DNA from: an uncultured Acidimicrobiaceae bacterium | Lineage (GTDB): Bacteria > Actinomycetota > Acidimicrobiia > Spongiisociales > ZC4RG35 | NCBI GenBank assembly: GCA_964474055.1 | Contig: CAYYRT010000252.1 | Span: 1 to 63,295, forward strand | Length of the DNA stretch: 63,295 nt | Direction of reading: 5' to 3' | In this document: positions 17,596 to 48,254 of the stretch, piece by piece | Numbering within the stretch: position 1 is the stretch's first letter | How the letters are laid out: the number at the start of each line of letters is the position of its first letter | Notes under the pieces: generated by a model | What the model was told of the DNA's origin: nothing | What the model saw: only the letters and a program-made list of their open reading frames with translations | Database searches by the model: none | Made by a program: the position numbers and the translations under genes

Positions 17596-17613
17596 CCTGG
17601 TGGCTGGGACTGG

Positions 17614-18627
17614 GTGAAGAGTTATATGGACGACGATGATCTGCCCGATTTTCTCGGTGTGGGTGCCCAGAAATGCGGCACTACCTGGCTTCATGTCCAA
17701 TTGGTGCGGCACCCTGAATTGTGGCTCCCAAGGTGGAAGGAAATCCACTACTTCGACCAGAAGATGTACCTCCGCTGGCCCCTGGCTGCCTACATGCTGA
17801 AAAGCGACGCCCACCGGTGGCGCGAACGGTTGGCCAAGGACCTCAAAGCCAATTGGGGGGACCGCGATTGGCAGGGCTTTCGGGGCAGCCTGCGCCAGCA
17901 CCTGGGCCGCCCCTCCCCTGACTGGTACCGGCGAAACTTCGTCGAAGGACGAGGCCGAGTTAAGGGTGAGATAACACCTGCCTACGCGACCTTGACCCTT
18001 GAGCAAGTGCATAGGGTGAAGGAACTCGTGCCCGCGGCCAAGATTATTTTCCTGATGCGCTCACCTATCGAACGGGATTGGTCAGCCTCCTTGATGCTGA
18101 CCCAGAGAGACTCGGGCACACCAGCTCAGGCCGTGGAGGCAGATGTCCGGCGAATTGTCAGCCGCGACAGGGTGGCCGCCCGGTCGGATATGCACTCAGG
18201 GTTCAACCGCTGGGCAGATCAGTACCCGTCGGAGCAGGTCTACCTCGGATTCCTCGAAGATGTGCATTTCCATCCAGAACAAATCCTCAACTCGATCTAT
18301 CGGTTTCTCGGCGTCTCCGAAGTAGAGGTGCCACCGGAGGCCAAAGACAAGGTGCATTCCCGGTCGGGCCGAACAATTCCGCTTTCGGCGGCCCGCTTCT
18401 TAGCTGAACGCAACCTCGCCCAGCTCGAGAAGCTGGCTAACCAGTTTGGCGGCTATACGGTGTTGTGGCTGGAGGTCGCCAGGTGGCTCATCGACCAACA
18501 GGGCGACGAGGCTATCCCCTATCCACTCTGGAACCTTCCCGTTTGGCAAGAAAGCGCTCGCCAACACCGCATCGAAGCAGGATCCTGGTTTCAAAGCAGA
18601 AGCCTCGCTCCATCGCCGACCCTTTAG
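17614..18627 (+). CDS. Sulfotransferase (ST1)
   Basis: 5'-PSB loop GVGAQKCGTTWL and 3'-PB motif FLMRSPIERDWS. Confidence 0.8.
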   Translation: MKSYMDDDDLPDFLGVGAQKCGTTWLHVQLVRHPELWLPRWKEIHYFDQKMYLRWPLAAYMLKSDAHRWRERLAKDLKANWGDRDWQGFRGSLRQHLGRPSPDWYRRNFVEGRGRVKGEITPAYATLTLEQVHRVKELVPAAKIIFLMRSPIERDWSASLMLTQRDSGTPAQAVEADVRRIVSRDRVAARSDMHSGFNRWADQYPSEQVYLGFLEDVHFHPEQILNSIYRFLGVSEVEVPPEAKDKVHSRSGRTIPLSAARFLAERNLAQLEKLANQFGGYTVLWLEVARWLIDQQGDEAIPYPLWNLPVWQESARQHRIEAGSWFQSRSLAPSPTL

Positions 18628-18669
18628 GGTTTCCTGTCGACCAGGGCGAATCCCCTGAACGAAAGAACC

Positions 18670-19356
18670 CTAGAACGTGTAGCCGTACTCTTTAATTCTA
18701 CTTCGGTACGTCCGCTCGACGATTTTGCGAGCCAAGGGGGTGTAGTACTCGCGATAGTCGCGTGGGCGATTGCTCGTTGGGTGAATGTGAGGGATTTCGA
18801 TCGGTCCAAAACCGAGGCGCTTCAGAACGGTGTCGAAATCAGCCTGGAGCGATTCGAACCTCATCACGAAGTCCATGCCGACTGAGTGACTGGTGTCCTG
18901 GTTCTCGCTTCGAAGCGCTCTGGGAACGAAGAATGACCCGATGTGCCCTCTCGTGTACCGATAGACAAGCCAATCGGTGAAGGTGGCTTCGTGTGCGACT
19001 TTGATGGAGCTAACGAACAGATCGCTGTGATGTCCCCATCGGCCCTGAATGTCGGGCGGTGGGCCATCGCTCGATCTCATCTTGACGTAGAGAGATACCT
19101 CAGAATCGAACGGACTGCGCACGGTTGTGAATTTAAAGAGACCCTGGGAAACCTCCGGCGTGAGCTGGCCAAGCTCAAGCAGCTCCTTCAATTTGGCGTG
19201 CTTGCGGCCTATCTGCTTGCCACCGAGTTGGGGTACCAGCACTCCTTCGGCTACCGCCGTGCAACCGGTGCGAGGCCGTTGGATAAAAAGAAACTTCTGA
19301 CCAATAACCGCCAATCCCAACCCCTTTGCCGATCTCTCGCTGGAGATTCTACTCAA
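18670..19356 (-). CDS. Sulfotransferase, family-2-like (ST2)
   Basis: FIQRPRTGCTAV (resembles the HIPKTGGT PAPS loop) and TVRSPFDSEVSLY (RxPxDRxxS-like). Confidence 0.6.
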   Translation of the reverse strand: MSRISSERSAKGLGLAVIGQKFLFIQRPRTGCTAVAEGVLVPQLGGKQIGRKHAKLKELLELGQLTPEVSQGLFKFTTVRSPFDSEVSLYVKMRSSDGPPPDIQGRWGHHSDLFVSSIKVAHEATFTDWLVYRYTRGHIGSFFVPRALRSENQDTSHSVGMDFVMRFESLQADFDTVLKRLGFGPIEIPHIHPTSNRPRDYREYYTPLARKIVERTYRSRIKEYGYTF

Positions 19357-19504
19357 TCGGGTGGTGCGGTCGGCCGAAAAGACAAGTGCGAGACGGTCTC
19401 GCCCTTATGGAGAGGGCCTGAATAGGGTTGCCCCGCGACGTGGAGGACGTTCGGGTGCCGCCACAGGCGCCCGAAGCTCCAAGTCTGCCCCTTTGGAGGG
19501 ATCA

Positions 19505-20560
19505 ATGAAGAACATCACCGCACACGGCGTCCTGCGACGCCTGGCAGGTCTCGCCACCGCATCCTTGTTGGTGTTGTCAACTTTCGTGGTCCTAGACGAC
19601 AATGTCGCCAGCGAGGTCGCCGGCCGCCAAGCCTCCATCGGCGAACTAAGCCACAACGACACGGCCTCGGGCTCCCTTCGCAAATCCACCACGACAGAAG
19701 CAAACCGAACGACAACTACCTCGGCTCTATCGACCCCTACCCTCCAAAGCACATCGACACTCCCCGCCACCACTGCCGCCACCACTGGCGCCACCACGGC
19801 TCTCGCTCCGACCACGGCGCCCATTACCACCACCCCGGCTGTGGCAACCATGGCAGCCCAGCAGATACCCGCCACAGTTCCGCATCCGAAATGCCGGAAA
19901 ACAAACTGCTACCTCATACATCTCGGATCCATAGACGACCCCAACACCCCACAGGTGGAGGCAAAGCGTGGCTGGTGGAACGCTCCCTACATCGGTACAG
20001 GCAAAGAGGGTTCGGGGGCACTGCCATATGTCGCTGACTCTCGTTGGATCGAAGGGGATCGCATCGCCTATCGCTGCGCATACGGGTTCCTCACCCGGAA
20101 CGGTGAAGTGATCGGACGGTTCACTTTTGTCCGCGCCAGCGGCTACAGCTTCATCAACGATCGTTACATGCAAGAGGGCTTGAGGTTTTGGGACGGATCG
20201 AGTCAAAACGGAACGGGCAACTCGAAGTCCCGGGCTCAGGCCTACAACCACAATTGGTGCGACACGATCCTCTCCCAGGAGTATGTACCTGATACTCGTC
20301 CTGGTCAGTTACCGCGGGTGGTGTTCTGGCAGGGCGGCGAGGTGGTTGAGATTCGCGACTACCGGACTGTTTCGGCTGCGTCTGGTATCAAGTTCCGCGT
20401 GACCGACGTAACAGGTCCGTTCACCTCTGACGACGGGGGAGGTCGGTCAGTGCAGGTGTCCAACCGGGTGACTGTCGTCGCTTACGAGAACGACCTGCCC
20501 GTGGTCGTTGTCTACTACGACGCTTTGGGATCGGGTCAAGTCTCAGTCGACTTTCCGTAA
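19505..20560 (+). CDS. Secreted/anchored hypothetical protein with Thr/Ala-rich linker and Cys-containing C-terminal domain
   Basis: ATG 19505 is preceded by GGAGGG. MKNITAHGVLRRLAGLATASLLVLSTFVVL signal/anchor. About 90 aa of T/A/S-rich low complexity. The following ~230 aa domain has no family I recognise. Confidence 0.6.
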   Translation: MKNITAHGVLRRLAGLATASLLVLSTFVVLDDNVASEVAGRQASIGELSHNDTASGSLRKSTTTEANRTTTTSALSTPTLQSTSTLPATTAATTGATTALAPTTAPITTTPAVATMAAQQIPATVPHPKCRKTNCYLIHLGSIDDPNTPQVEAKRGWWNAPYIGTGKEGSGALPYVADSRWIEGDRIAYRCAYGFLTRNGEVIGRFTFVRASGYSFINDRYMQEGLRFWDGSSQNGTGNSKSRAQAYNHNWCDTILSQEYVPDTRPGQLPRVVFWQGGEVVEIRDYRTVSAASGIKFRVTDVTGPFTSDDGGGRSVQVSNRVTVVAYENDLPVVVVYYDALGSGQVSVDFP

Positions 20561-20572
20561 TTCCGCCAGCCG

Positions 20573-21403
20573 CTAGTAGCCACCGAGGATGCCCGCTTCG
20601 CGGGCGTACTCCAAGGATCGCATGAACGTCCAGAGCCCAAAGCTAAGGACCACGACGTTAAAGATGCCGAGCGCGATGACGGCACTAGAGAAGCTGACAA
20701 CAAATGTACCCGGATCATCCATCAACACCGACCGCGATGCGTTGATGACATAAGTGTGCGGCAACACCCAACTGAGCGGGCGCAGCCATCCAGGAAGCTG
20801 CTCGACTGAAAACAGCGCACCGCCCAACAGCGAAGACGCCAGACCGTAGAGTGTCAGCACGGGTTGTGACTTCTTGGCGACAATCATGAGCGCCGCAGCC
20901 AGGATGCCCACGGCCATACTCGCGACTACACCCATCAGTGCCAGGACGACAAAGGCTGGTAACCCAGACAGCTGGTAGTTGGCGCCTATAAGGCCCGTCA
21001 TTGTCAGGATGAGGCTGCCGTTGATGACGCCGAGAGTGGCCCTCCACAGGTTCATCGCAAATGGCAGATAGACCCATGGAACCGGCTCCACCAACAAGGT
21101 CTCGAATTGGCCCCGACCTTGGGCCCTCTGGAGAGCACCTCCGAAACCCGACAGCGCACTCTGCAGGATGGCGCTTACCGCAACGCCTATGGCAGCGAAG
21201 GTGAAGTAGTCACCGCCCACCCGAGCCGAATCGCCCACCAACTCGCCAACAAAGAAGTACACAACTACCGGGGCGAGAATGCCCACCTCAGACAGGACGA
21301 GCGACATCGGATAGCTGACTTCCTCAATGACGTCCATCCGAAGAAAGGCCACGGTCATTGAGCGAAGCCGCCCCAGGAACCTGCGCGACGCGAAGCGGGA
21401 CAT
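20573..21403 (-). CDS. ABC-2-type transporter permease
   Basis: About 6 TM helices and ~275 aa. Its start overlaps the stop of the upstream ATPase gene by one base (both at 21403). Architecture is typical of polysaccharide/teichoic/drug ABC-2 exporters. Confidence 0.75.
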   Translation of the reverse strand: MSRFASRRFLGRLRSMTVAFLRMDVIEEVSYPMSLVLSEVGILAPVVVYFFVGELVGDSARVGGDYFTFAAIGVAVSAILQSALSGFGGALQRAQGRGQFETLLVEPVPWVYLPFAMNLWRATLGVINGSLILTMTGLIGANYQLSGLPAFVVLALMGVVASMAVGILAAALMIVAKKSQPVLTLYGLASSLLGGALFSVEQLPGWLRPLSWVLPHTYVINASRSVLMDDPGTFVVSFSSAVIALGIFNVVVLSFGLWTFMRSLEYAREAGILGGY

Positions 21404-22407: not shown

Positions 22408-22426
22408 CGAAAACCCAAGTGCCAGG

Positions 22427-23473
22427 TCATCGGTTGCGGTCTGTGTCCGCAGATTCCATCCAGACCAAGTCCCGGGTGAGACGACTCTCGTCGATGAGTT
22501 GTTGGATCCGGCGCAGACGCGTGCACCTGGCGCTCGACAGAGTCTCATGGGTAAGTCCCGCCATAACGAACCGCTCGTAGAGATCGCGCACACTCGAGGC
22601 AAGGTCCCAACGAAGCTCGAAACCTGGCAACACCTTCCCGACCTTGTTAAACGCTACGCGGTAGTCCCTCTTATCTGCCTCGCCGCCGGGGGCGTAGGTG
22701 ACGACGCTGCCGTCGACAACAGCTGCGATGGTCTCGGCGATCTCACGCACCTGAAAGTTTTGGTCATCGCCACCTATGTTGATAGCTTCGGCGTGAACGT
22801 CGTCCAGCGGTGCTGTCAGCACCGCCAGAAACGCCAAAGAGATGTCCTCGACGTGGACCAGGGGCCGCCAGGGCGAGCCGTCGCTCTTGATCAGGATTTC
22901 ACCTGTGGAAATCGCGGACGCGAGGAGATCGTGGACGACCAGGTCGCCCCGCAGCCGAGGTGACCAGCCATGTGCGGTCGCGTTGCGCAGTAGAACCGGA
23001 CTGAAAGAGTCGTCGGCCATCGCCAACAGCGCTCGCTCCAACCACGCCTTCGTCTCGGCGTAGGGCGTGATGGGAGCTAGAACTGCTGTCTCATCGACGG
23101 CCGTATCTCCGGCCTGGCCATAAAGGCTGCACGATGACGCAAATAGAAATCGACTGACGCCTGCCGCTTTGGCGGCGACGGCGAGACGGAGCCCTCCGCC
23201 AAAGTTGATCTTGTAGGTCAGTTCGGGATTGAGAAACCCCAGCGGATCGTTCGACAAACCTGCCAGGTGGATGACGGCATCGAAGCCTTTAAGGTCCGCG
23301 GTCTCCACATCACGAAGATCGCGGGTGATCGTGGCAATCGGTTCGATGGGTGCAACAGTGCATTCGCTGAAATAGCCAGTGTCGAGTCCCACGACCTCAT
23401 GGCCTGCCGCTGCGATTAGCGGCGCCATGACCGAGCCGATATACCCTTGGTGCCCAGTGATCAGAACCCTCAT
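22427..23473 (-). CDS. NAD-dependent epimerase/dehydratase (extended SDR)
   Basis: MRVLITGHQGYIGS Rossmann motif and YAETK catalytic motif. Confidence 0.8.
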   Translation of the reverse strand: MRVLITGHQGYIGSVMAPLIAAAGHEVVGLDTGYFSECTVAPIEPIATITRDLRDVETADLKGFDAVIHLAGLSNDPLGFLNPELTYKINFGGGLRLAVAAKAAGVSRFLFASSCSLYGQAGDTAVDETAVLAPITPYAETKAWLERALLAMADDSFSPVLLRNATAHGWSPRLRGDLVVHDLLASAISTGEILIKSDGSPWRPLVHVEDISLAFLAVLTAPLDDVHAEAINIGGDDQNFQVREIAETIAAVVDGSVVTYAPGGEADKRDYRVAFNKVGKVLPGFELRWDLASSVRDLYERFVMAGLTHETLSSARCTRLRRIQQLIDESRLTRDLVWMESADTDRNR

Positions 23474-23673
23474 CCCCTGCCTCCCGTTACGGACGTCTTC
23501 CCTCACGACCTATCCAACCCCTTAACAGCAGCATTCTACCTCCGGGCTTTTGCCCTCCCAAGGGGGACAACCAGGGAACCTGGCCTGTCGAGGCCTGAAC
23601 GTGATCGGTTAGCCTCGCCGCCGATGGGGATACCAGACGGTCCGGAGTTCGCAATCAGGCCCAACCGTCCGGC

Positions 23674-24522
23674 TTGCTGATGCAGACCGTTTTGGACCTC
23701 TTCGTCCTCCCTGAATCACGGCTCGGCTTTGTTCTGGGTCTTGCTGGTTTGGTTGGGATGGCCGCCTTCTACATCGCCCGAGCAGGCAAGCCGGCGCCGC
23801 TGGCGGGATGGCTGCTTGCGGGAGCCGTCCTGGTTGGCGTATGGAATGCACTGGGACAACGGATCGGCCTCACGGCCGCCCTAGCGCTCGCTGGGGTCGC
23901 CGGTGCCCTCATAGACCGCTCTCCTCCGATTGCCTGGACCTCGGGAGCGTTATCGGCGATCCTGCTGTCCGCGACCAGTGGACTCCCGGAGGAAACATGG
24001 ATCCGCTTTGGGACCCCCGCGGTGGCCCTGTTGGCGGGCATTGGGATTAGCAAGGCCGACAAGGTGGCCCCCCATATCTCCAGCGTGTTGTTGGGTATAA
24101 CGGCATTCGGAGTGTGGGCAACGGTGCCCGACACGGAGATAGCCCGTTTGGTGATGGCGACCGCGGTGGTGTTGGCGCTTGCTGGGCCCCTCAAGGTCGG
24201 ATCCGTAGGGAACGGTGGGGCTTTTGCGGCGTCTGCTTCCCTGGCCGTTCTTGCGGCATTTCAGGGTCAGGGGAGACCGGGATCGATCATCGGTGCTTGG
24301 GCCTGTGTAGGGGTTATGGCCTTTGGATCCATGATCCGATACATCCCTGGTAACTATTTGATCCTTGGTATTCATGGAGCGCTCGTTCTTTGGGCGTCTC
24401 GGTTTGCAGGTTTCCGCCAGGATGCAGGCTCGGCGCTGGCGCTGTCCGCCGGGTTACTTGCGGCTGCCGGAACCGCGCTGGCCTTCTGGATGAAGTTGAG
24501 AGTCCCACCCGAGCAGGGCTGA
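23674..24522 (+). CDS. Polytopic membrane protein, unknown function
   Basis: 282 aa, almost entirely hydrophobic helices (A/G/L-rich). No recognisable motif. Confidence 0.5.
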   Translation: MLMQTVLDLFVLPESRLGFVLGLAGLVGMAAFYIARAGKPAPLAGWLLAGAVLVGVWNALGQRIGLTAALALAGVAGALIDRSPPIAWTSGALSAILLSATSGLPEETWIRFGTPAVALLAGIGISKADKVAPHISSVLLGITAFGVWATVPDTEIARLVMATAVVLALAGPLKVGSVGNGGAFAASASLAVLAAFQGQGRPGSIIGAWACVGVMAFGSMIRYIPGNYLILGIHGALVLWASRFAGFRQDAGSALALSAGLLAAAGTALAFWMKLRVPPEQG

Positions 24523-24632
24523 TCCCCAAGCCGTCTTTTGCCTCCTCTGCCTATTCCTCCATGGCTTGCCACCACCTATAATTGCGTTGGGTTCGGAGGG
24601 GCACTCGGCCCTTTGTCAGAGGGGCAGACGCC

Positions 24633-25550
24633 ATGACCGCTGAGTCTTATAACGCCGACAATCCGCTGATCACGATTGGCCTACCCGTCTACAACGGCGC
24701 AGATCACATCGGGCAAACTATTGAGTCACTCCTCGGCCAGACTTTCACCGACTTTGAAGTGGTCGTTTCCGACAATGCGTCCACTGACGGCACTCTGGAA
24801 ATCCTCCGGGATTGGGAAAAGAAGGACAATCGGATTCGGGTCTATGCAGAGTTGTCAAACCGCGGGGGGGCCTGGAACTTCAATCGGGTAGTTGAATTGG
24901 CAAGAGGGGAGTACTTCCGGTGGGCTGGCCATGACGATCTCATCGACCCGAATTACCTGAGGGCATGCATCGATGCATCGCGGGCGGCGCCACGCCAAAC
25001 AATCCTCGTCCACACCCGGACAACCTTGATTGATGGAGACGGGAAGGTCCTATCCGAGTACGACGATGACCTCAACCTGACCGCCGCGGAGCCTCGCGCA
25101 CGGTTCGCCAGACTCGTCAACAGAGTGGGGATGGCAAACCCGATCTTCGGGTTGATGCGGTTGCAGGACCTCAAGACAACCAATCTTCTCGGTAAGTATC
25201 CGTCAGCTGATCTTGTCTTGCTCGGTGAGTTAGCGATTCGCGGGCAGTTCCTACGCATCGAGCAAGGAATGTTCTTTCGACGCGTGCACCCGAAGGCAAG
25301 TTGGAGAGCCGCCGGGCGGCATGAAGGCTTCGCCGCCTGGTTTGATCCGGCGAGAGAGTCGCGAATCGTGTTTCCGACCTGGCGGTTGTACTTGGAGTTC
25401 ATAAAAGCAGCAGCAAAAGCCCCGGTTTCCGCCGGTGAACGCCTAGCCCTGGTGGCGGTCGCAGTTGCCCGATGGCCATGGTTCCGCTTCAAGCGGATGG
25501 CAGCCGAGATAAAGCGCATTCCGCGAGTGCTGCTGGCCAAAAGATCTTGA
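24633..25550 (+). CDS. Family-2 glycosyltransferase
   Basis: ITIGLPVYNG ... VVVSDNASTDGT ... GHDD motifs of the GT-A/GT2 fold. ATG 24633 preferred over 24582. Confidence 0.8.
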   Translation: MTAESYNADNPLITIGLPVYNGADHIGQTIESLLGQTFTDFEVVVSDNASTDGTLEILRDWEKKDNRIRVYAELSNRGGAWNFNRVVELARGEYFRWAGHDDLIDPNYLRACIDASRAAPRQTILVHTRTTLIDGDGKVLSEYDDDLNLTAAEPRARFARLVNRVGMANPIFGLMRLQDLKTTNLLGKYPSADLVLLGELAIRGQFLRIEQGMFFRRVHPKASWRAAGRHEGFAAWFDPARESRIVFPTWRLYLEFIKAAAKAPVSAGERLALVAVAVARWPWFRFKRMAAEIKRIPRVLLAKRS

Positions 25551-31245: not shown

Positions 31246-31271
31246 TGAGGCGCTTCTCCGTACTCGCCCAG

Positions 31272-34769: not shown

Positions 34770-36691
34770 GTTGTGACAGGTTCGATGACCCGCAAATCCA
34801 GCGTTTCGGAGATAGCAGTCAAGCCCAGAGTCATCTCCGTCAGGATATCGCGAATCAACGCCCTGTTACCCAAGGAGGCCGCGTCCACCAACCGTGCCAC
34901 ACCTTCCCCAACAGCCAGGGCTCCTGGATGCACCGGCTCGGCCACTGAAATAGCCGGGTGTCGCGTCGGTTCCATGGGGTACTCGGCCAGGACTTCGTTG
35001 AGCTTCTCGCCACGGCGCCGGCCGGTGAACACGATCGGAATGTCCCGGTCGGGGGCCAGACCGGCGAGCCGGATCAGGCGGCGGGCAAGGTCGACGATAC
35101 GTACAGGTTCGCCCATGTCGAGGACAAATACCTCCGAGCCTTTGGCAAGAGCCGCAGCCTGGAGGACCAGTTGAACTGCCTCATCCACCGTCATGAAATA
35201 GCGAGTCATGCTGGCCTCGGTGACTGTGACGGGACCACCCCGCTTCACCTGTTCGACGAACGTCGGGACCACGCTTCCCCGACTGCCGAGGACGTTCCCA
35301 AAGCGCACTGCCGTGTATTGGCACCCATCGCGCCTTTGGTTGCCCACCTGCACCAGCATCTCGGCTACTCGCTTGGTGGCTCCCATCACGCTGGCCGGGT
35401 CAACTGCCTTGTCGGTTGATATCAATACAAAGCGCTCCACTTTCGACACAGACGATGCATCGATGAGGTTCAAGCTGCCCTGGATGTTGGTTAACACTGC
35501 CTCCTCGGGAAATTCCTCGAGTACCGGAACGTGTTTGAGAGCAGCGGCGTGAAAGATGACCTCGGGCCGAATCTCTGCAAAGACCCGGAACAATCGAGTC
35601 CGGTCGCGAATGTCACACAGGATGCGGCTGACCGGCTGGTTCCAAACCATGCTGGCATCGTGCAGCAACGTTTCGTCCCGGTCGAGCGCAAAGACCGCTG
35701 CTGGCTCGTAGCTCAAAACCTGGCGGACGATCTCCGACCCGATCGATCCTCCGGCGCCAGTCACCAGAACACGTCGGCCCGCCACCAGACCACCGACCTC
35801 GGTCATATCGGTAGAAACCGGCGGTCGCACCAACAAGTCGTCGATCTGGATATCGCGCGCATCAAGGTTGGTTGAACGGCCAAGCATCACGTCTTCTGCG
35901 CCCGGCAGGATGCGCAGCCGGACATCGATGTCGAGGCATCGGTCGACCACGCGTCGGGCCCGCTCCGGTCCTCCCCCGACCACTACCACCTGGTCGACTG
36001 CCCACTGTTTGATGATCTCTTCGAGTTGGTCAATTGATCCGAGAACCGGCAGGCCAGCGAGACGTCGAACCTCGGAATGAAAGGCGTACGACTCCGCAAC
36101 AAACCCAACTACCTCGCCGCCGGCGACGAGTTCTGGAGCTTCGCGGGCAAACGCCGCGGCGGCGCGTCCGTTGCCAACCACAAGAATCCTTGACCCCGCG
36201 GGCGACCTCTTGCGGAAAGAAAACAGCCTGGACCGGAATCTGACCAGTCCCATTCCGGCCAGCGACAAGAGCCCACCGAGGATGATGGTTGCGTATGGCA
36301 CCACGGGCCCAATCCCCAGGTCGCGAAGGACGTTGGAGAGGACTAGAAGTGCTGCGATAGCAAGACCGGCCGAAATCGCTACCTGGCGAGCCTCGGCCAG
36401 GCTGGCATGTTCCCAAACGTGACCATATGCGCCAATGAGGATGTTGAGACCGATGTGGACCGCGACGATCACGGGCAACGAGTCGACCAGGTCGACCCAA
36501 TACTTCTGGGCTGTGCCCACGAGCGGGTCAAGCATGCGAAAGCCCAGGCCGAGCGCATAAGCACCCATGATGATGAATACGTCAATCAGGGCAAATACCA
36601 AATCGGCCCGCAGCCGCGAGGCCGCCCCGGCCACTTGTCGCCGCCACTCCGGCATCGCCTCGAGACCCGTTGTCAATCGCCCACCCAACAC
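34760..36691 (-). CDS. Membrane-anchored CapD/WbpM/PglF-type nucleotide-sugar 4,6-dehydratase
   Basis: Four N-terminal TM helices. Two Rossmann regions (ILVVGNGRAA; VLVTGAGGSIGSEI). Family-typical STDKAV and YTAVRFGNVLGSRGSV motifs. Confidence 0.85.
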   Translation of the reverse strand: MLGGRLTTGLEAMPEWRRQVAGAASRLRADLVFALIDVFIIMGAYALGLGFRMLDPLVGTAQKYWVDLVDSLPVIVAVHIGLNILIGAYGHVWEHASLAEARQVAISAGLAIAALLVLSNVLRDLGIGPVVPYATIILGGLLSLAGMGLVRFRSRLFSFRKRSPAGSRILVVGNGRAAAAFAREAPELVAGGEVVGFVAESYAFHSEVRRLAGLPVLGSIDQLEEIIKQWAVDQVVVVGGGPERARRVVDRCLDIDVRLRILPGAEDVMLGRSTNLDARDIQIDDLLVRPPVSTDMTEVGGLVAGRRVLVTGAGGSIGSEIVRQVLSYEPAAVFALDRDETLLHDASMVWNQPVSRILCDIRDRTRLFRVFAEIRPEVIFHAAALKHVPVLEEFPEEAVLTNIQGSLNLIDASSVSKVERFVLISTDKAVDPASVMGATKRVAEMLVQVGNQRRDGCQYTAVRFGNVLGSRGSVVPTFVEQVKRGGPVTVTEASMTRYFMTVDEAVQLVLQAAALAKGSEVFVLDMGEPVRIVDLARRLIRLAGLAPDRDIPIVFTGRRRGEKLNEVLAEYPMEPTRHPAISVAEPVHPGALAVGEGVARLVDAASLGNRALIRDILTEMTLGLTAISETLDLRVIEPVTTWS

Positions 36692-36956
36692 TCAAGCCTC
36701 CCACAGCTTTGCCAAATGGGCTCCACTCGGCGCCCACTCCCTAGATCCGACAGATTACCCAGGCTGGGGCTAAGTCAAACACCTGAATCTGTGGGTCCAC
36801 CGAATCAGATCGGGCGGGAACACCTTCGCAAGACAGAAGTAGCCTGTGCCGGGGATGCTGATTTCTTATCCGGGAGGCGACTGTGTCGAGACCAGTGTTG
36901 GGAATGTCCGAGGGATCCGATCTAACCGCGACCCTGACTGACCCCAACGGGCATCC
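36692..36956. promoter_or_regulatory. Divergent promoter region between the capD-wzz operon and the polymerase-like/ST6 operon
   Basis: 265-bp non-coding gap between divergently oriented genes. Contains a 7-bp inverted repeat ACAGATT ... AATCTGT. No promoter elements could be assigned confidently. Confidence 0.3.
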
Positions 36957-38318
36957 ATGAAAGAGGGCGTCCTCTGGGGTTTCGGAGCCGTGGTCACGGT
37001 TGCTCTGGCGGGCCTGCTGGGGGTCGGGGCAGGCGAAGTGATGGTGCTCGCGTTCACTCCTCTAATGGTGTTGGGGATGGTCGGAGTAGGTCGCATGCTC
37101 GCCCGACCGGTCGACCAGAATTGGCTCCCGACCCTTGTGGTGCTCGGGTTTCTGGCCAAGCTGGCAGGCGCCGGGGCCCGTTACTACTTCGTCCGTTACG
37201 TCTACGCCAGCGGCGATGCTTTTGGCTACTACCGGGTCGGCATGGAGTTCGCCGAACAATGGCGGGCAGGAAACCCGCCTGGTTTGAGTGGCAACCGCGG
37301 CGAAGGCACCCAGGCCATGGAGGCCATCGCGGGCGTCGTCTTCACACCCTTCATGCCCGACTTCCTCGGAGGCTTCTTCCTCTTCGCCGCACTCTCCTTC
37401 TTTGGCCAGTTGGCGCTCTATGCAGCCTTTCGCCGGTGGGCACCCGGCTATCAGCTCAAAGCATTCGCCATCTTCATCTTTTTCCTCCCCAGCTATGTGT
37501 TCTGGCCGTCGAGTATCGGCAAAGACGCCGTGATGCTGCTTGGTCTCGGGCTGGCGGCGTACTGCATGGCGCGATTGTTGGAGGCGTTCGCAATCCGCTG
37601 GCTGGTGGCTTTGGGCCTGGCCCTGGCGGGAATCGGATTTGTGAGGATCCACATCTCAGCCCTTGTGATCGGATCACTCCTACTGACCGCTCTCATCGCC
37701 AAGTCGCGTGTTTGGAGCCCGGGACTCGCGCTTCGAAAGACAGCTGTGATAGGTGGGATCGTGTTTATTGGGATCCTGTCGTTGAGCGTATTTCAAGAGC
37801 GATACGGCGCAAATCCCCTCGACACCGATGAAATTGCCTCTTTCTCGGAAGGCGTCGTTGATCGAACATCACAAGGTTCGATCGTGCCGGGGGGGGCCGT
37901 GAGTAGCCCGGCCGATGTACCGGAGGCAATCGTGCTGGTCCTCTTCAGGCCGTTCCCATGGGAGGGAGGCGACCTCCAGGTGAGAATGGCCGGTCTGGAA
38001 ACCAGCCTCCTTCTCGGCCTCCTGGTTTGGAAACTGCCCGCCATGTTCCGCAACCGAAAGCGCTGGCGTTCCAACTCGCTGGTCGTGTTCTCTACCTTCT
38101 ACGTATTCGCCTTCTGTATCGCATTCAGCGTGATCCGCAATCTGGGGATCATCGCCCGTCAACGCACCCAGGTGCTGGCATTCCTCCTGATCATCATCAT
38201 CGCCCTCGGATGGGAACAGAAGACGGGACCAAGACGCCTCACCGGTCACACTTCCAACACGATCGATGAGCGCCAACTGGCACTGACCGAAGGTCGGCCG
38301 GGCCAGGGATTCTCCTAG
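36957..38318 (+). CDS. Polytopic membrane protein (candidate glycan polymerase/ligase-like)
   Basis: 453 aa with >=10 predicted hydrophobic helices and one larger loop. Located at the head of an operon with ST6. No diagnostic motif seen. Confidence 0.45.
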   Translation: MKEGVLWGFGAVVTVALAGLLGVGAGEVMVLAFTPLMVLGMVGVGRMLARPVDQNWLPTLVVLGFLAKLAGAGARYYFVRYVYASGDAFGYYRVGMEFAEQWRAGNPPGLSGNRGEGTQAMEAIAGVVFTPFMPDFLGGFFLFAALSFFGQLALYAAFRRWAPGYQLKAFAIFIFFLPSYVFWPSSIGKDAVMLLGLGLAAYCMARLLEAFAIRWLVALGLALAGIGFVRIHISALVIGSLLLTALIAKSRVWSPGLALRKTAVIGGIVFIGILSLSVFQERYGANPLDTDEIASFSEGVVDRTSQGSIVPGGAVSSPADVPEAIVLVLFRPFPWEGGDLQVRMAGLETSLLLGLLVWKLPAMFRNRKRWRSNSLVVFSTFYVFAFCIAFSVIRNLGIIARQRTQVLAFLLIIIIALGWEQKTGPRRLTGHTSNTIDERQLALTEGRPGQGFS

Positions 38319-38321
38319 CCG

Positions 38322-39224: not shown

Positions 39225-39322
39225 GGAGCGGGGATGACCCATTGGCGGACGCGGAGTCGCGGGTTAGATTGCCTGGCAGGGGTGCGGGTGCTGGGCCCGC
39301 CAGGGACTCGGGAGGGTAAATC

Positions 39323-40201
39323 GTGAAGGTATTGGTCACAGGAGCCGCTGGCTTCCTCGGGCGGCACGTCGCTCGACACTTCTCTGACAAAGGCTGGGAC
39401 GTCACCGGTTTCGACCTGGTCGAAAACGGTGAGGGCAAGATCATCGTGGGCGACCTCACCTCAGCCGCATCCATCACCGAAGCTGTCGCCGATCACAACG
39501 TCATCGTCCACATAGGTGCAATCGGAGACGTCTACCTGGCCGGTGAACAACCCTCGCTGGCCGCCGGCGTGAACGTTGTCGGGACCGCAAATGTCATCGA
39601 CGCCGCCCTGCACCACGGTGCCAGGGTGGTGTATGCATCCACCTGGGAGGTTTACGGCCACCCCCGTTACCAGCCGATCGACGAAGACCACCCCACCGCC
39701 CCCGACCATCCTTACAACATCACCAAACTCGCCGGTGAGAGCCTGCTCCTGGCCGCCTGCCGTCTTCGCCAGCTTTCGGGGATGGCGCTCAGGCTCGGCA
39801 CGGCGTTTGGGACCGGGCTGCGTCCAAACTCGGTTTTCCGGATCTTCATCGACCGCGCTCGCAGGGGTGATCCCATCACCATTCAGGGCGACGGGTCGCA
39901 GGGGCGACAGTTCACCCATGCCGCCGATATCGCTCGAGCCTTCGAATTGGCCGCCCGCTCAGACCTCTCCGGTGCCGCTCTCAACATCATCGCCCCGGAG
40001 ACGGTCTCGATCAAAGAACTGGCGGAGCAAGTAGTCAGCCGATTCCCCACCGAACTGACCTTCGGACCACCTCGGCCAGGTGACGTTCCTCCAGCCCTGG
40101 TATCAGCCCGGAGAGCCGGCGATGTGCTTGGGTGGCAAGCGGAAGTCCCCTTCCGCGACGGGCTCGACGATCTGATCGACGATGTCATCAGCGCGGGCTG
40201 A
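39323..40201 (+). CDS. NAD-dependent nucleotide-sugar epimerase (GalE-like extended SDR)
   Basis: VLVTGAAGFLG, ASTWEVYG, YNITK catalytic motif. GTG start preceded by GGGAGGG. Confidence 0.8.
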   Translation: MKVLVTGAAGFLGRHVARHFSDKGWDVTGFDLVENGEGKIIVGDLTSAASITEAVADHNVIVHIGAIGDVYLAGEQPSLAAGVNVVGTANVIDAALHHGARVVYASTWEVYGHPRYQPIDEDHPTAPDHPYNITKLAGESLLLAACRLRQLSGMALRLGTAFGTGLRPNSVFRIFIDRARRGDPITIQGDGSQGRQFTHAADIARAFELAARSDLSGAALNIIAPETVSIKELAEQVVSRFPTELTFGPPRPGDVPPALVSARRAGDVLGWQAEVPFRDGLDDLIDDVISAG

Positions 40202-41297
40202 CCGGCCGCGGATTCTCGTTCTCATCAAGGGTCTCGGTATCGGGGGAGCCGAGCGGCTCATCGTCGAAGCCTCCAAAAGCTGGGATCGCTCGAGCTTCGA
40301 CTATCGAGTCGCCTATGTGCTGCCCTGGAAGGATCAACTGGTCTCCAGGCTGACCGAGGCCGAAGTTCCCGTTGTTTGCATCGGTGGGAAGAGGGGCCTT
40401 GACCCGCTTACGCCGATCAGGCTGCGCCGCCTGATTCGCGACGAACGGATCTCACTGGTCCACGCCCACCTCCCCTCGGCCGGGATCCTGGCACGAGTAG
40501 CGGCCAAGGTCCCGGTCGTCTACACAGAGCACAACCTGGCCGGGTCATATCGCCAGCCCACCCGGACTCTCAATCGCCTCACATATCGAGGGAACGAAGC
40601 CGTTACCGCGGTCTCCGAGGCAGTGGCGAGCAGCGTCGAAGGGTGGGGAGGGCCTCCGGCAACGTTCGTCGCCAACGGCGTTGCGGTCGACGTTGGTCAA
40701 GCCCAGATAGCCGACATCCGCCAGCAGCTGGGTATCGAGCCCGATCTGCCCCTAATTGTTCACGTCGGCAACATTCGGCCACTCAAGGGGCATTCGACGC
40801 TTATCGCAGCTGCGGAATTGCTGGTCAAGCTGTTGCCCGACTTCCTCATTGCCAGCGCGGGAGGCGAAAAGAATCCGGGTGACCTGGAAAGAGTCCGGCG
40901 CCAGGCCAGAGTTGTCGGGGTAGCCAACAAACTCCGTTTTCTGGGGAGAGTGGACGATGCCCGGCCCTTGCTGGCGGCGGCCGACGTCGTGGTCAACCCG
41001 GCCGACGCGGAAGGTCTGCCGGTAGTCCTCCTGGAGGCCCTGGCGCTAGGTAGACCGGTCGTAGCGACTGCAGTCGGAGGAGTGCCAACAATCATCCGCG
41101 ACGGTGAAACCGGTCGGTTGGTGCCGGCGGGTGATCCCGTGGCCCTGGCAGCTGCCCTCGCCGAAGCGATCACCGACGGCGCAGCAAGTTCGCGTTGGGG
41201 AACCGCGGGCGCGGCTCTGGTCGCACAGGAGTATGGGGTCGACAGAATGGTCACCGCCTTCGAGGACATCTACCGACGCCTGCTCACAATGAACTAG
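40182..41297 (+). CDS. GT-B fold (family-4-like) glycosyltransferase
   Basis: RILVLIKGLGIGGAE N-terminus. C-terminal NPADAEGLPVVLLEALALGRPVV motif. Confidence 0.85.
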   Translation: MSSARADRPRILVLIKGLGIGGAERLIVEASKSWDRSSFDYRVAYVLPWKDQLVSRLTEAEVPVVCIGGKRGLDPLTPIRLRRLIRDERISLVHAHLPSAGILARVAAKVPVVYTEHNLAGSYRQPTRTLNRLTYRGNEAVTAVSEAVASSVEGWGGPPATFVANGVAVDVGQAQIADIRQQLGIEPDLPLIVHVGNIRPLKGHSTLIAAAELLVKLLPDFLIASAGGEKNPGDLERVRRQARVVGVANKLRFLGRVDDARPLLAAADVVVNPADAEGLPVVLLEALALGRPVVATAVGGVPTIIRDGETGRLVPAGDPVALAAALAEAITDGAASSRWGTAGAALVAQEYGVDRMVTAFEDIYRRLLTMN

Positions 41298-47072: not shown

Positions 47073-47141
47073 GGCATTCAAACACGTTTTGCATCACTGC
47101 CGTCAACGTATCCTTGAACCTCCCCGCAGAAAGCCAAAGGA

Positions 47142-48253: not shown

Positions 48254-48254
48254 C

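Follow-up and report, generated by a model that had tools for sequence, protein, structure and literature searches.

A candidate sulfated-glycan locus with unusually dense PAPS-type sulfotransferases in an uncultured Acidimicrobiia-type actinobacterium

Introduction

Sulfated surface glycans are rare among bacteria, yet they are not unique to the organism considered here. One published case, from 2026, is a candidate sulfated-EPS cluster in an actinomycete (PMC13390465). We analyzed a 63,295-nucleotide stretch of DNA (the window) from an uncultured bacterium, in which an earlier note had described six sulfotransferase ORFs within an envelope-glycan locus. That note's impression of a GC-rich, Gram-positive-like genome fits our placement: the genome is from the Actinomycetota (Acidimicrobiia), and its E3, E2 and LipBA proteins have 80–82% identity to those of the Acidimicrobiia MAG GCA_035524835.1. 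Our whole reading is based on homology and genomic context, and these suggest that a sulfated, amino-sugar-rich envelope glycan is the likely product of the region from ~17.6 to 46.2 kb.

Results

Scanning all six frames of the window with HMMs and phmmer revealed exactly six sulfotransferases, all inside 21.6 kb:

17614..18627 (+): ST1, member of an insertion-bearing sulfotransferase clade that is widespread in bacteria; Sulfotransfer_3 59.5 bits, Sulfotransfer_1 31 bits
18670..19356 (-): ST2, small Sulfotransfer_2-family protein; 18 bits, under the cut-off of 22
26575..27402 (+): ST3, heparan-sulfate-type sulfotransferase homologue; Sulfotransfer_1 58.8 bits
27384..28235 (+; ORF from 27336): ST4, heparan-sulfate-type sulfotransferase homologue; Sulfotransfer_3 58 bits, Sulfotransfer_1 56.5 bits
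29388..30383 (-): ST5, divergent sulfotransferase; Sulfotransfer_3 47.5 bits, Sulfotransfer_1 39 bits
38322..39224 (+): ST6, heparan-sulfate-type homologue, the core sulfotransferase; Sulfotransfer_1 55.8 bits

All but ST2 scored above the Pfam gathering cut-offs for sulfotransferase families (22–27 bits), with Sulfotransfer_3 and/or Sulfotransfer_1 at 39–59 bits. ST2 was placed through its family: PF03567 (Sulfotransfer_2) was found in 19 of 19 database homologues, and the family alignment preserves PRTGCTA, an invariant His, VRNPFDSxVS and RFExLQxDF. The leading PDB fold matches of the ST2 AlphaFold model (pLDDT 86) were almost all PAPS sulfotransferases, although the scores were weak (best E 4e-3, TM 0.43–0.47), and a sequence search of the PDB with ST2 gave no match. 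The six ORFs of the earlier note were thereby borne out, and homology identifies five of them as sulfotransferases individually and ST2 at the level of its family.

Both PAPS-binding signatures had been assigned to all six ORFs. This was correct for ST1, ST3, ST4 and ST6, which have the (K/R)xGT(T/S) loop and a complete RxPxxRxxS motif, but ST5 has the loop (PRSGTS) and lacks the second Arg of the other motif (RHPVEVLTS), and ST2 lacks that Arg and has RTGCT instead of the loop. A KE..(F/Y)F motif was observed in ST1, ST3, ST4 and also ST6; from the literature, we take the Glu of this KE..FF motif to be the catalytic base.

The sequences of ST3, ST4 and ST6 show homology to the heparan-sulfate 3-O- and N-sulfotransferases (3-OST, NST), with which their PAPS-binding loops and catalytic Glu align. 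In the PDB, ST3 matched 3RNL (8.5e-17), 3-OST-3A (1.2e-14) and NST (4.2e-13), ST4 matched the same three (2.9e-29, 6.5e-22 and 2.4e-20), and ST6 matched 3-OST-3A (1.8e-23) and NST (2.1e-20), with its 5'-PSB loop QRGGTS, KEIEYF with the Glu, and 3'-PB motif RDPLARAHS corresponding to those of both enzymes. ST1 (KCGTT, KEIHYF, RSPIERDWS) matched 3RNL at 5e-13, and the best of its 96 homologues, from an Acidimicrobiia MAG, had 50% identity. The sole match for ST5 was 3RNL (0.006). The six would represent at least three sequence types, with ST1 and ST5 each distinct, ST2 in Sulfotransfer_2, and ST3, ST4 and ST6 3-OST/NST-like. Database gene calls start ST1 at 17626 and place ST2 at 18670-19314 (214 aa). 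Logan contig L001 encodes a protein identical to ST3, and the gene call on that contig matches the ST4 start at 27384. The N-terminal ~85 residues of the ST5 ORF are probably not all coding.

Three genes at the start of the window are of the kind that would supply PAPS:

1..888 (+): 3' part of a bifunctional sulfate adenylyltransferase/APS kinase (PAPS synthase, Sat/CysC); APS_kinase 204 bits plus ATP-sulfurylase C-terminus
898..2667 (+): DASS/SLC13-type anion (sulfate-type) symporter with two TrkA_C domains; CitMHS 244 bits, Na_sulph_symp 58 bits, TrkA_C
2655..3473 (+): inositol-monophosphatase family protein; Inositol_P 161 bits

The Sat/CysC gene is truncated by the window start (its frame is open from base 1) and matched NCBIfam NF004040 at 432 bits over model positions 316–571. 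The symporter matched TIGR00785 at 139 bits, and its gene shares 13 bases with that of the phosphatase.

Downstream of the first five sulfotransferases, the following genes were observed, the last four entries flanking the others:

31272..32060 (-): NodB2, CE4 polysaccharide deacetylase, first core gene; Polysacc_deac_1 80.7 bits
32061..34769 (-): Wzc-like polysaccharide co-polymerase; family profile against Wzc/Etk/CapB kinase domains 3.5e-21
34760..36691 (-): CapD/WbpM/PglF-type membrane-bound UDP-HexNAc 4,6-dehydratase; Polysacc_synt_2 346.8 bits, PseB/FnlA-like
36957..38318 (+): GT-C-fold polytopic membrane glycosyltransferase; PMT_2 18.6 bits, under cut-off
39323..40201 (+): SDR2, nucleotide-sugar reductase/epimerase; Epimerase 161 bits
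40182..41297 (+): GT4 glycosyltransferase (b), kept in relatives; Glycos_transf_1 117 bits
41294..42232 (-): WecA/TagO-type polyprenyl-phosphate HexNAc-1-phosphate transferase, initiating enzyme; Glycos_transf_4 87.8 bits
42239..43984 (-): GT4 fused to GNAT acetyltransferase; Glycos_transf_1 114 bits, Acetyltransf_1 57 bits
43981..46170 (-): NTP_transf_5 nucleotidyltransferase domain fused to GT4; NTP_transf_5 106 bits, Glycos_transf_1 108 bits
46150..46791 (+): LuxR/GerE-type regulator; GerE 53.5 bits
46767-47072 (+) and 47142-47414 (+): two PqqD-like small ORFs, the second with weak PqqD/lasso-chaperone matches
47462-48253 (+): HprK-related kinase-like protein; TIGR04352 64.5 bits, under cut-off
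48255-49205 (+): GNAT; Acetyltransf_9 52 bits

The stretch from NodB2 to the NTP5-GT4 fusion (31.3–46.2 kb) is a conserved Acidimicrobiia core, and the nearest relatives come from MAGs of that class. The close relatives L087 and L089 have the core in common at 52–80% amino-acid identity, with ST6 orthologues (71% identical) in the same position and, in their left arms, sulfotransferases differing from those here. The more distant L091 and L092 have the core at 35–68% identity, but ST6 is absent and no sulfotransferase was found within 21 kb. Identities in relatives were 51–59% for NodB2 (L087, L089, L091, L092), 56–74% for CapD, 66–80% for SDR2 and 57–74% for the GT4-GNAT fusion. In the flank, L087, L089 and L091 have orthologues of the regulator and PF05402 genes at the position of the PqqD-like ORFs, and the position of the HprK-related and GNAT genes beside the core is also conserved.

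The Wzc-like protein combines a coiled coil and two TM segments with a P-loop-ATPase-like domain, in which the Walker A lysine is missing, and a C-terminal domain of no assigned family. As a single sequence it gave only weak matches; 10 of 30 members of its family matched Wzz, and two are fused to NodB. The GT-C protein has 141 homologues, most in Acidimicrobiia, and an invariant Asp87 in its first loop. Foldseek matched its model (pLDDT 88) foremost to STT3, PglB, AglB, PMT and ArnT (probability ~1.0, TM 0.41–0.48) and poorly to WaaL. WecA has ~11 hydrophobic segments and scored 77 bits, under cut-off, with the WecA model. SDR2 likely partners CapD.

To the left lie these additional genes, the first two before the variable arm and the others within it:

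14594..15874 (-): Asn-synthase-like PP-loop protein (SGGYDS); weak Asn_synthase match, 21.7 bits
15928..17595 (+): GMC-family FAD oxidoreductase; GMC_oxred_C 78 bits
19361..20560 (+): membrane-anchored protein with one hydrophobic segment, a Thr/Ala/Pro-rich linker and a C-terminal domain of no assigned family
20573..21403 (-): ABC-2 type exporter permease, DrrB-like, six hydrophobic segments; ABC2_membrane 54.7 bits
21403..22602 (-): ABC exporter ATPase, DrrA/NodI-like; ABC_tran 104.8 bits from residue 103
22427..23506 (-): SDR1, nucleotide-sugar epimerase/dehydratase family; Epimerase 147.5 bits
23674..24522 (+): membrane protein, ~six TM segments by hydropathy
24582..25550 (+): GT2 glycosyltransferase (a); Glycos_transf_2 89 bits
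25472..26578 (+): GT2 glycosyltransferase (b); Glycos_transf_2 130 bits
28232..29398 (-): GT4 glycosyltransferase (a); Glycos_transf_1 130 bits, Glyco_transf_4
30283..31245 (+): NodB1, CE4 polysaccharide deacetylase; Polysacc_deac_1 74 bits

Genes are packed tightly, with overlapping stops and starts: GT2 (b) and ST3 overlap by 4 bases, and GT4 (a) overlaps the end of ST5. The ABC ATPase probably starts downstream of the TTG at 22602, because its ORF overlaps SDR1. It lacks a Wzt-type carbohydrate-binding domain, and the ABC pair has a generic likeness to DrrAB/NodIJ; in L091 an ABC ATPase directly adjoins NodB and the core. SDR1 received no equivalog-level assignment in the model search. Neither the 19361..20560 protein, which has a homologue (35% identity) in the variable arm of L089, nor the 23674..24522 protein matched any Pfam or NCBIfam family. 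NodB1 and NodB2 have intact TFDDG and HxxxH motifs (HTWDH in NodB1) and no hydrophobic N-terminus or signal peptide, and both look cytoplasmic. The long ORF at 30268-31275 (-) is spurious, being the opposite strand of NodB1. At the arm's edge, the GMC oxidoreductase ends 19 bases upstream of ST1, has a pyranose-oxidase-like C-terminus and is possibly a sugar oxidase, and the PP-loop protein is possibly an amidotransferase; an Asn_synthase gene directly adjoins NodB in L092. Membership of both in the locus is uncertain.

Discussion

Domain searches confirmed the glycan-gene neighbourhood of the earlier note (two GT2, four GT4, two NodB, CapD, two SDR, a Wzc/Wzz-like protein and WecA). The PAPS-supply module, the ABC-2 exporter pair, the GT-C-fold glycosyltransferase, the cytoplasmic-looking NodBs and the 3-OST/NST homology are additions to that description.

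By homology, both the building of the glycan and its sulfation would take place on the cytoplasmic side of the membrane, with polyprenyl phosphate as the carrier. WecA would load HexNAc-1-P onto the carrier, CapD and SDR2 would provide a 6-deoxy-HexNAc-type sugar, and the two GT2 and four GT4 enzymes (one GNAT-fused, one nucleotidyltransferase-fused) would extend the chain. The two signal-peptide-less deacetylases would then free amino groups in the cytoplasm, and the six PAPS-dependent sulfotransferases, of three or more sequence types, would add sulfate, probably at several O-positions and possibly also at the freed amines. PAPS would come from the Sat/CysC fusion, alongside the symporter and a CysQ-type PAP phosphatase. 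The ABC-2 pair would export the finished lipid-linked glycan, and beyond the membrane the Wzc-like co-polymerase and the GT-C-fold transferase would take it over. No Wzx- or Wzy-type Pfam match was observed among ~55 window ORFs (each roughly ≥180 aa), nor was an LCP ligase found, and so the final destination may be the wall, the capsule, a protein or a lipid.

The PAPS module at 1-3473 strengthens the sulfated-glycan reading. It lies 14 kb from ST1, however, and could serve general sulfur metabolism, and its phosphatase, with both CysQ and HisN models under cut-off, could be HisN, although context favors CysQ. In the Nitriliruptorales locus L022, a symporter homologue adjoins Sat/CysC and an ST1-like gene in the same type of adjacency. 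Six sulfotransferases in a sugar-polymer cluster, together with its own sulfate-activation genes, indicate that a sulfated surface glycan is very probably made.

Whether there is one such product is a separate matter. The core is kept with ST6 in two relatives and without any sulfotransferase in two others. This suggests that an older envelope glycan acquired sulfation as a decoration in particular lineages, through ST6 within the core and ST1–5 within the variable arm (17.6–31.2 kb). Since the six genes are split over these two evolutionary compartments, they may not share one product, and there may be two. The single, heavily sulfated polymer proposed earlier was overstated in this respect. 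Its description as glycosaminoglycan-like was not supported either, as the window has no UDP-glucose dehydrogenase or any other uronic-acid gene; the sugar chemistry that the genes indicate is amino-sugar only.

A lipid-linked glycan locus with many sulfotransferases, as the earlier note had proposed, is supported, and more strongly so given the PAPS module and the 3-OST/NST homology of ST3, ST4 and ST6. These sequences, in which PAPS-type sulfotransferases are unusually dense, are best read as encoding the synthesis of a sulfated glycan. Among 80 loci that ST1 homologues located in other genomes, 56 had one sulfotransferase and only one had six. The novelty claimed for such a locus was nonetheless too strong, as loci no less dense occur in public MAGs (L008), one example from an Actinomycetota MAG having six sulfotransferases or more, and the published actinomycete cluster also weighs against it.

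Six Predicted Sulfotransferase Genes in the Locus

The window was proposed in an earlier note to carry six sulfotransferase genes in an envelope-glycan locus. Pfam matches and motifs indicate that this sulfotransferase-rich locus is a real feature and was rightly spotted. In a profile-HMM check, five of the six ORFs (ST1, ST3, ST4, ST5 and ST6) scored above the curated gathering score of Sulfotransfer_3 and/or Sulfotransfer_1.

Putative sulfotransferase ORFs, with best Pfam score
17614–18627, + strand: ST1, 59.5 bits
18670–19356, − strand: ST2, Sulfotransfer_2 18 bits (cut-off 22)
26575–27402, + strand: ST3, 58.8 bits
27384–28235, + strand: ST4, 58.2 bits
29388–30383, − strand: ST5, 47.5 bits
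38322–39224, + strand: ST6, 55.8 bits

Both PAPS-binding signatures had been read in all six ORFs. The phosphosulfate loop was indeed found in each (in ST2 as RTGCT), but the RxPxxRxxS motif is present in ST1, ST3, ST4 and ST6 and absent from ST2 and ST5, where the second Arg is missing. ST2–ST6 are just 21–30% identical to ST1, and therefore the six are not recent duplicates.

The Glu of the KE..FF motif is the catalytic residue in sulfotransferases of the heparan-sulfate type. In a sequence search of the PDB, ST3, ST4 and ST6 were found to be homologous to the human heparan-sulfate 3-O-sulfotransferases and the N-sulfotransferase domain of NDST1 (E 1e-13 to 1e-23), as well as to 3RNL, a bacterial structure. 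In ST6, three elements align with 3-OST-3A and NST at positions of PAPS binding and catalysis: the QRGGTS loop, the Glu of KEIEYF and the RDPLARAHS motif. Alignment to solved structures predicts a sulfotransferase fold for ST1 and ST3–ST6, the similarity of ST5 to any solved sulfotransferase being marginal.

ST2 is probably a sulfotransferase too, and is the least certain of the six. Its closest homologue, encoded in an Acidimicrobiia MAG, is annotated as a sulfotransferase family 2 protein, and PF03567 was matched by 19 of 19 database homologues, ST2 alone falling below the Pfam threshold. The alignment of these 19 diverged members has kept the PRTGCTA loop, an invariant His, VRNPFDSxVS and RFExLQxDF. 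By sequence, ST2 had no meaningful match in the PDB, whether searched singly or with its family profile. An AlphaFold model built from the family alignment (pLDDT 86) gave top Foldseek matches in the PDB that were nearly all PAPS sulfotransferases (SULT7A1, NDST1, HS6ST), although these were weak (best E 4e-3, TM 0.43–0.47).

Glycan Genes and a Putative Sulfate Supply

Pfam bore out the neighbors that had been named for the sulfotransferases (GT2, GT4, NodB, CapD, SDR and WecA), and overlaps of sulfotransferase genes with glycosyltransferase genes were seen at GT2b/ST3 and ST5/GT4a.

Glycan genes of the locus
20573–22602: ABC-2 permease and ATPase, adjacent genes (ABC2_membrane 54.7 bits, ABC_tran 104.8 bits)
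22427–23506: SDR1
24582–25550: GT2 (GT2a)
25472–26578: GT2 (GT2b)
28232–29398: GT4 (GT4a)
30283–31245, + strand: CE4 deacetylase NodB1
31272–32060, − strand: CE4 deacetylase NodB2
32061–34769, − strand: Wzc-like co-polymerase, 902 aa
34760–36691: CapD/WbpM-type dehydratase (347 bits)
36957–38318: polytopic protein of predicted GT-C fold (no significant Pfam match)
39323–40201: SDR2
40182–41297: GT4 (GT4b)
41294–42232: WecA/MraY-family transferase (Glycos_transf_4 87.8 bits)
42239–43984: GT4 fused to GNAT
43981–46170: GT4 fused to an NTP_transf_5 domain

The best NCBIfam match of the product of 41294–42232 was the WecA model, yet below its cut-off. No glycosyltransferase, SDR, ABC component or deacetylase received an NCBIfam equivalog-level name, so that sugar identities were not assignable. 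Both deacetylases have kept the TFDDG and HxxxH motifs and have neither a signal peptide nor a membrane anchor; NodB1 and NodB2 probably act in the cytoplasm.

The Wzc-like protein had marginal family matches as a single sequence. A profile of 30 members of its family matched the kinase domains of Wzc, Etk, BceF and CapB (3.5e-21), which upholds its description as Wzz-like; Wzz itself was matched by 10 of the 30 members, and two have a fused NodB domain. The protein may be a non-catalytic co-polymerase, because the Walker A lysine is missing. Its residues ~690–902 form a separate C-terminal module of ~200 residues without family assignment, which elsewhere makes up entire proteins (about 200 aa) or lies at the C-terminal end of proteins of 1,000–1,700 aa.

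The polytopic protein has 141 homologues, mainly in Acidimicrobiia, and its model (pLDDT 88) matched STT3, PglB, AglB, PMT and ArnT with a probability of ~1.0 and TM of 0.41–0.48. The GT-C fold suggested by this model was preferred to a Wzy polymerase or a WaaL ligase, the WaaL match being poor. The ABC pair is DrrAB/NodIJ-like. Among ~55 window ORFs of at least roughly 180 aa, no Pfam match was found to the Wzx (Polysacc_synt) or Wzy/O-antigen-ligase families. Wzt_C and LytR_cpsA_psr likewise had no match among the window ORFs scanned, and may be elsewhere in the genome. Two ORFs were set aside: 30268–31275 (− strand, 335 aa) is Arg-rich, without a family match and opposite NodB1, and is not a gene, and 49528–50151 looks equally spurious. 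The GC content of the window is 58–65%, and the window holds no tRNA genes or Rfam families.

APS kinase makes PAPS, the sulfotransferase donor, and CysQ clears the by-product PAP. The window opens inside a gene for a bifunctional sulfate adenylyltransferase/APS kinase (Sat/CysC), directly followed by an SLC13/DASS-type anion symporter and then an inositol-monophosphatase-family protein, which by its sequence may be either CysQ or HisN. In a locus from Nitriliruptorales (L022), a like symporter and Sat/CysC adjoin an ST1-like gene.

Several other genes in the window were noted. Between this PAPS module and the lipoate genes lie RmlC (dTDP-4-dehydrorhamnose 3,5-epimerase), a DRL-type oxidoreductase and a nucleotidyltransferase (5707–8352, + strand), which add to the nucleotide-sugar genes but fall outside the interval of the earlier note. 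Beside the E2/E3 genes, 8281–9927 (− strand) encodes a 548-aa fusion of a LipB-type octanoyltransferase domain (LplA-B_cat) with lipoyl synthase (LIAS_N and Radical_SAM); it is 82% conserved in L002, a locus of an Acidimicrobiia MAG whose sulfotransferase genes lie in between these housekeeping genes. Between the E3 gene and the glycan locus, 12846–14597 (− strand) encodes a GSDH (glucose/sorbosone dehydrogenase) domain protein that has a hydrophobic segment at its N-terminus and a membrane anchor at its C-terminus and carries CRSCH, a haem-binding-like motif of the CxxCH form. At the other end, 54397–60781 (+ strand) is a second block for sugar modification. Besides a DegT/EryC1 aminotransferase and a sugar nucleotidyltransferase, it encodes two luciferase-like monooxygenases and, within a protein of 821 aa, two C-methyltransferase modules (Methyltransf_13/14). 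The families in this block suggest a C-methylated amino sugar.

A Conserved Core and a Variable Arm

A first genome-contig scan with ST1 gave no relative, and in a second, with an ST1-family alignment, the best match was 42%. Exact-sequence searches with ST1, both as the longest ORF and as the database gene-call version, recovered no contig; that with ST3 found a 5.6-kb Logan contig (SRR10083321) that is 99–100% identical to the window over 22.4–27.9 kb. The window has its best relatives among Acidimicrobiia MAGs. In GCA_035524835.1, the counterparts of E3, E2 and the LipB-LipA fusion are 80–82% identical, and an ST1 orthologue (50%) and another sulfotransferase lie among these housekeeping genes.

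Four syntenic loci were recovered through the GT-C protein: L087 (GCA_040905905.1), L089 (a 1.47-Mb ENA contig from ERZ28492981), L091 (GCA_026002975.1) and L092 (GCA_028284765.1). L087 and L089 have the order NodB2, Wzc-like, CapD, GT-C, ST6, SDR2, GT4b, WecA, GT4-GNAT, NTP5-GT4, LuxR, two PqqD, HprK-related kinase and GNAT, with identities to the window proteins that range from 46% (HprK-related kinase, L089) to 80% (SDR2). ST6 is conserved in both in position and sequence (71%). To the left of this core, both loci carry other sulfotransferases (Sulfotransfer_3, Sulfotransfer_4) and other glycosyltransferases. L091 and L092 have the core at 35–68% identity, and neither precomputed Pfam matches nor our own HMMs detected a sulfotransferase in 21 kb of these loci. 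In L091 an ABC ATPase directly adjoins NodB, and in L092 the core lies beside glmS, glmM and ribosomal protein genes. Two more distant relatives, L090 and L093, still have the GT-C gene linked to an HprK-like/NTP_transf_5 gene; L090 also has two sulfotransferases and a UDP-glucose dehydrogenase.

We conclude that the window combines an Acidimicrobiia envelope-glycan core (about 31.3–49.2 kb) with a variable arm (about 17.6–31.2 kb), and that the sulfotransferases are a lineage-specific addition to both.

Other features of the two parts were observed. The GC content around the arm (16000–30000) is 0.577–0.611, slightly lower than in most flanks (about 0.61–0.65), as would fit a block that is more mobile or evolves faster. 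Encoded at 19361–20560 (+ strand), between the genes for ST2 and the ABC permease, is a protein with a membrane anchor, a long linker rich in Thr, Ala and Pro, and a C-terminal domain of ~220 aa without an assigned family; a homologue of this protein (35% identical) is found in the arm of L089 (2420–3475). That this protein is a glycosylation target of the GT-C enzyme would be pure speculation. Conserved beside the core, in the window (43981–49205) and in L087, L089 and L091, is a module of two small PqqD-like ORFs, an HprK-related kinase-like protein, GNAT and NTP_transf_5, which recurs with the GT-C gene in the distant L090 and L093. The NTP_transf_5 domain is fused to GT4 in the window and to the kinase in L093.

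How Unusual Is an Array of Six

The second scan returned at least 474 relatives, and we examined the best 80 loci, counting sulfotransferase-like ORFs with our own HMMs. The counts per locus are lower bounds, because the HMMs miss some families.

Sulfotransferases per locus (lower bounds) in the best 80 of at least 474 relatives
1 sulfotransferase: 56 loci
2 sulfotransferases: 11 loci
3 sulfotransferases: 7 loci
4 sulfotransferases: 2 loci
5 sulfotransferases: 3 loci
6 sulfotransferases: 1 locus

These data place the window at the top of the per-locus distribution, but the window is not unique. L008, from the Actinomycetota MAG GS_EKS_MAG_00029, is as dense; this densest relative has at least six Pfam-confirmed sulfotransferases and a weak seventh, together with an arylsulfotransferase, a sulfatase, GT4 genes, a methyltransferase and WecA. 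Its arylsulfotransferase is of the PAPS-independent ASST type and its sulfatase has an SGSH_C domain; both lie beside the array (15165–18254 of L008), which hints at sulfate turnover or remodelling there. Rubrobacteraceae MAGs (L009, L011, L012 and L014) have 3–5 sulfotransferases, with WecA and CapD in L014, and four are found on a metagenomic contig (L005) that also encodes GT2/GT4, a sulfatase and a PMT_2 protein. The arrays of L008 and the Rubrobacteraceae, and those of an Anaerolineaceae MAG (L018), a Verrucomicrobia MAG (L082) and Aestuariirhabdus sp. LZHN29 (L071), resemble the window in having 3–7 sulfotransferases in ~21 kb beside GT2/GT4, SDR, WecA or CapD. Unlike the window, these undescribed arrays consist mostly of tandem ST1-family paralogues and are without the Acidimicrobiia core (GT-C, Wzc-like, NodB2). 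Overall, multi-sulfotransferase glycan loci appear to be scattered widely in uncultured Actinomycetota, Chloroflexota and Verrucomicrobiota, which suggests that bacterial glycan sulfation may be under-recognised.

Possible Products of the Locus

The reading best supported by the families, motifs, folds, gene order and conservation is that the locus makes a sulfated, WecA-primed, polyprenyl-linked glycan that is rich in amino sugars. The lipid-linked glycan would be sulfated at multiple sites on the cytoplasmic side by PAPS-dependent enzymes and exported via the ABC-2 pump, and would then be handled outside the cytoplasm by the Wzc-like protein and the GT-C enzyme. All substrates, the order of the steps, the N-sulfation of deacetylated amines and the final location of the glycan are what we infer. 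The interpretation first put forward was largely right, but overstated in its uniqueness and in its single glycosaminoglycan-like polymer.

The chief rival, which we regard as unlikely, is that core and arm lead to two or more products and not to one heavily sulfated polymer. The core (WecA, CapD, GT4s, GT-C, Wzc-like, NodB2 and ST6) would then make an envelope glycan typical of the lineage with at most one kind of sulfate, and the arm (ST1–ST5, GT2a/b, GT4a, NodB1 and ABC-2) would make or decorate a strain-specific molecule, e.g., an ABC-2-exported oligosaccharide or glycolipid, by a Nod-factor-like logic. The differing evolutionary histories of core and arm, the slightly lower GC of the arm and the resemblance of the ABC pair to DrrAB/NodIJ are in keeping with this, as is the presence of GT2, CE4, sulfotransferase, ABC-2 and PAPS synthase, the functional set of rhizobial Nod genes. 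However, there is no NodA-type acyltransferase in the window, the NodC match is generic, and the arm is without an initiating transferase of its own. The position of the L091 ABC ATPase beside the core NodB suggests that the exporter serves the core glycan, and O-antigen and capsule loci often join conserved and variable blocks for one polymer.

Non-glycan substrates and decayed genes are both unlikely. There is very little chance, in our view, that the acceptor of the sulfotransferases, or of some of them, is a peptide, a protein or a small molecule, such as the Thr-rich surface protein or a RiPP-like peptide of the PqqD/HprK-related kinase/NTP_transf_5/GNAT module. Conservation of that module beside the core, and its recurrence with the GT-C gene in L090 and L093, would fit such a peptide, and a kinase, a nucleotidyltransferase and PqqD are the tailoring set of phosphoglycosylated lasso peptides, sulfotransferase genes also having been reported in lasso-peptide clusters (PMC8498205). 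Against this, no lasso cyclase/protease pair adjoins the PqqD genes of the window; the sulfotransferases do not track the module, because L091 and L092 keep the module or core without any of them; the closest relatives of ST3, ST4 and ST6 are carbohydrate sulfotransferases; and sulfotransferase genes are translationally coupled to those of glycosyltransferases at the GT2b/ST3 and ST5/GT4a overlaps. It is also highly improbable that the sulfotransferase-like genes are in part silent or decayed paralogues, with little or no sulfate on the glycan. The deviant 3'-PB motifs of ST2 and ST5, the sub-threshold score of ST2 and the marginal match of ST5 to solved structures could be read that way, but the six ORFs are intact, of normal length and with a phosphosulfate-binding loop, and a dedicated-looking PAPS module lies in the window. 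Conservation of ST6 in two other genomes, and of the ST2 motifs across its diverged family, also argues against decay.

A bolder version of the sulfated-glycan reading is quite unlikely. An Acidimicrobiia sublineage would have turned an ancestral unsulfated envelope glycan, made by a sulfotransferase-free core as in L091 and L092, into a polysulfated polyanion. The change would rely on a bacterial, cytoplasmic and split form of the heparan-sulfate NDST logic, in which an NST-like sulfotransferase would act after a CE4 deacetylase, and several O-sulfotransferases would also modify the lipid-linked chain. The GT-C enzyme would move the exported chain onto the wall or a surface protein, and the polymer would be a phosphate-free, sulfate-based counterpart of teichoic acids. 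If so, such organisms would be among the makers of sulfated glycosaminoglycan-like material in environmental biofilms and granular sludge.

Significance

The sole genetically and chemically defined system for such a glycan is the cyanobacterial xss cluster (PMC8205485), and the one proposal for actinomycetes, made in 2026, is unverified (PMC13390465). Literature searches on Acidimicrobiia and sulfotransferases, and on sulfated cell-wall glycopolymers of actinomycetes, returned nothing relevant beyond that Actinoplanes paper. The loci described here form a comparison set, in which the Acidimicrobiia core occurs with none, one or many sulfotransferases, that lets one ask what sulfation adds. Soluble bacterial homologues of heparan-sulfate N- and 3-O-sulfotransferases, beside cytoplasmic CE4 deacetylases, would be of use to heparin bioengineering, where such NST/3-OST-type enzymes are sought because animal NDST expresses poorly in bacteria (PMC13353177). 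Sulfated glycosaminoglycan-like polymers have been detected in sludge and biofilms, their makers not being identified (discussed in PMC7356697), and the window locus suggests candidate producers.

Comparison with Known Systems

Animal NDST and 3-O-sulfotransferases are type II membrane proteins of the Golgi lumen that act on a finished proteoglycan chain. ST3, ST4 and ST6 share with them homology and an aligned 5'-PSB loop, KE..FF Glu and 3'-PB motif, and the pairing of a putative N-deacetylase with such a sulfotransferase would mirror the logic of NDST. The window has two cytoplasmic CE4 enzymes for three NST/3-OST homologues, whose N- versus O-specificity is not readable from sequence; a literature search for a CE4-like nature of the NDST deacetylase domain found nothing. 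Unlike the animal enzymes, the window proteins are predicted to be soluble and cytoplasmic, with deacetylase and sulfotransferase as separate polypeptides; what the two systems have in common is enzyme homology and not cell biology. The window has no heparosan-type synthase, GT2a and GT2b have only generic GT2 matches, and membership among glycosaminoglycan loci is not supported, because a uronic-acid gene is absent from the window (no UDPG_MGDP_dh match).

The Nod-factor pathway (NodC, NodB, NodH, NodIJ, NodPQ) likewise combines GT2, a cytoplasmic CE4, a PAPS sulfotransferase, an ABC-2 exporter and a dedicated PAPS synthase. The window differs in its WecA, CapD, four GT4, Wzc-like and GT-C proteins, which point to a polyprenyl-linked heteroglycan and not a lipo-chitooligosaccharide. 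Membership was rejected because NodA and NodC are absent (no NodA match; 38 bits for the NodC model against a cut-off of 550). Of the ABC-transporter-dependent type (Wzm/Wzt or TagGH), the ABC-2 pair and WecA/TagO-type initiation are present, and Wzt_C and an LCP ligase were not found among the window ORFs scanned.

Synechan of Synechocystis PCC 6803, whose sulfate has been demonstrated, is made by xss with two sulfotransferases, Wzx/Wzy polymerisation, an outer-membrane exporter and the regulators XssQ/R/S, and its number of sulfotransferases approximates that of sulfates per repeat (PMC8205485). As in xss, the window has PAPS-type sulfotransferases amid glycosyltransferases and a co-polymerase, with sulfation presumed to occur at a cytoplasmic, lipid-linked stage. 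Unlike xss, it has six of them, an ABC-2 exporter, WecA priming, CapD, two cytoplasmic CE4 enzymes and GT-C, in a host that is presumably a monoderm actinobacterium, and its sulfated glycan is a predicted product. It is not of the xss type, because Wzx and Wzy are absent from the ORFs scanned. Pontiella (Kiritimatiellota/Verrucomicrobiota), from a different phylum, has a glycosaminoglycan-like exopolymer in which sulfation, mainly N-sulfation, was measured, and a candidate cluster with one sulfotransferase, GT2/GT4 and an amino-sugar aminotransferase (PMC7356697).

Closest in phylum is the candidate sulfated-polysaccharide locus wps-1 of Actinoplanes missouriensis, which is Wzx/Wzy/Wzz-dependent, encodes two sulfotransferases and a GH26 enzyme, and plays a role in the sporangium matrix (PMC13390465). 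The sulfotransferases of both loci are of different families, one in wps-1 being of the heparan-sulfate type, and the sulfated product is predicted in both; the window differs in its six sulfotransferases, ABC-2 exporter and core conserved within Acidimicrobiia. The window adds several new points: a core-plus-arm architecture with relatives that have and lack sulfotransferases, a PAPS module linked to the locus, deacetylases that are probably cytoplasmic, and a GT-C enzyme.
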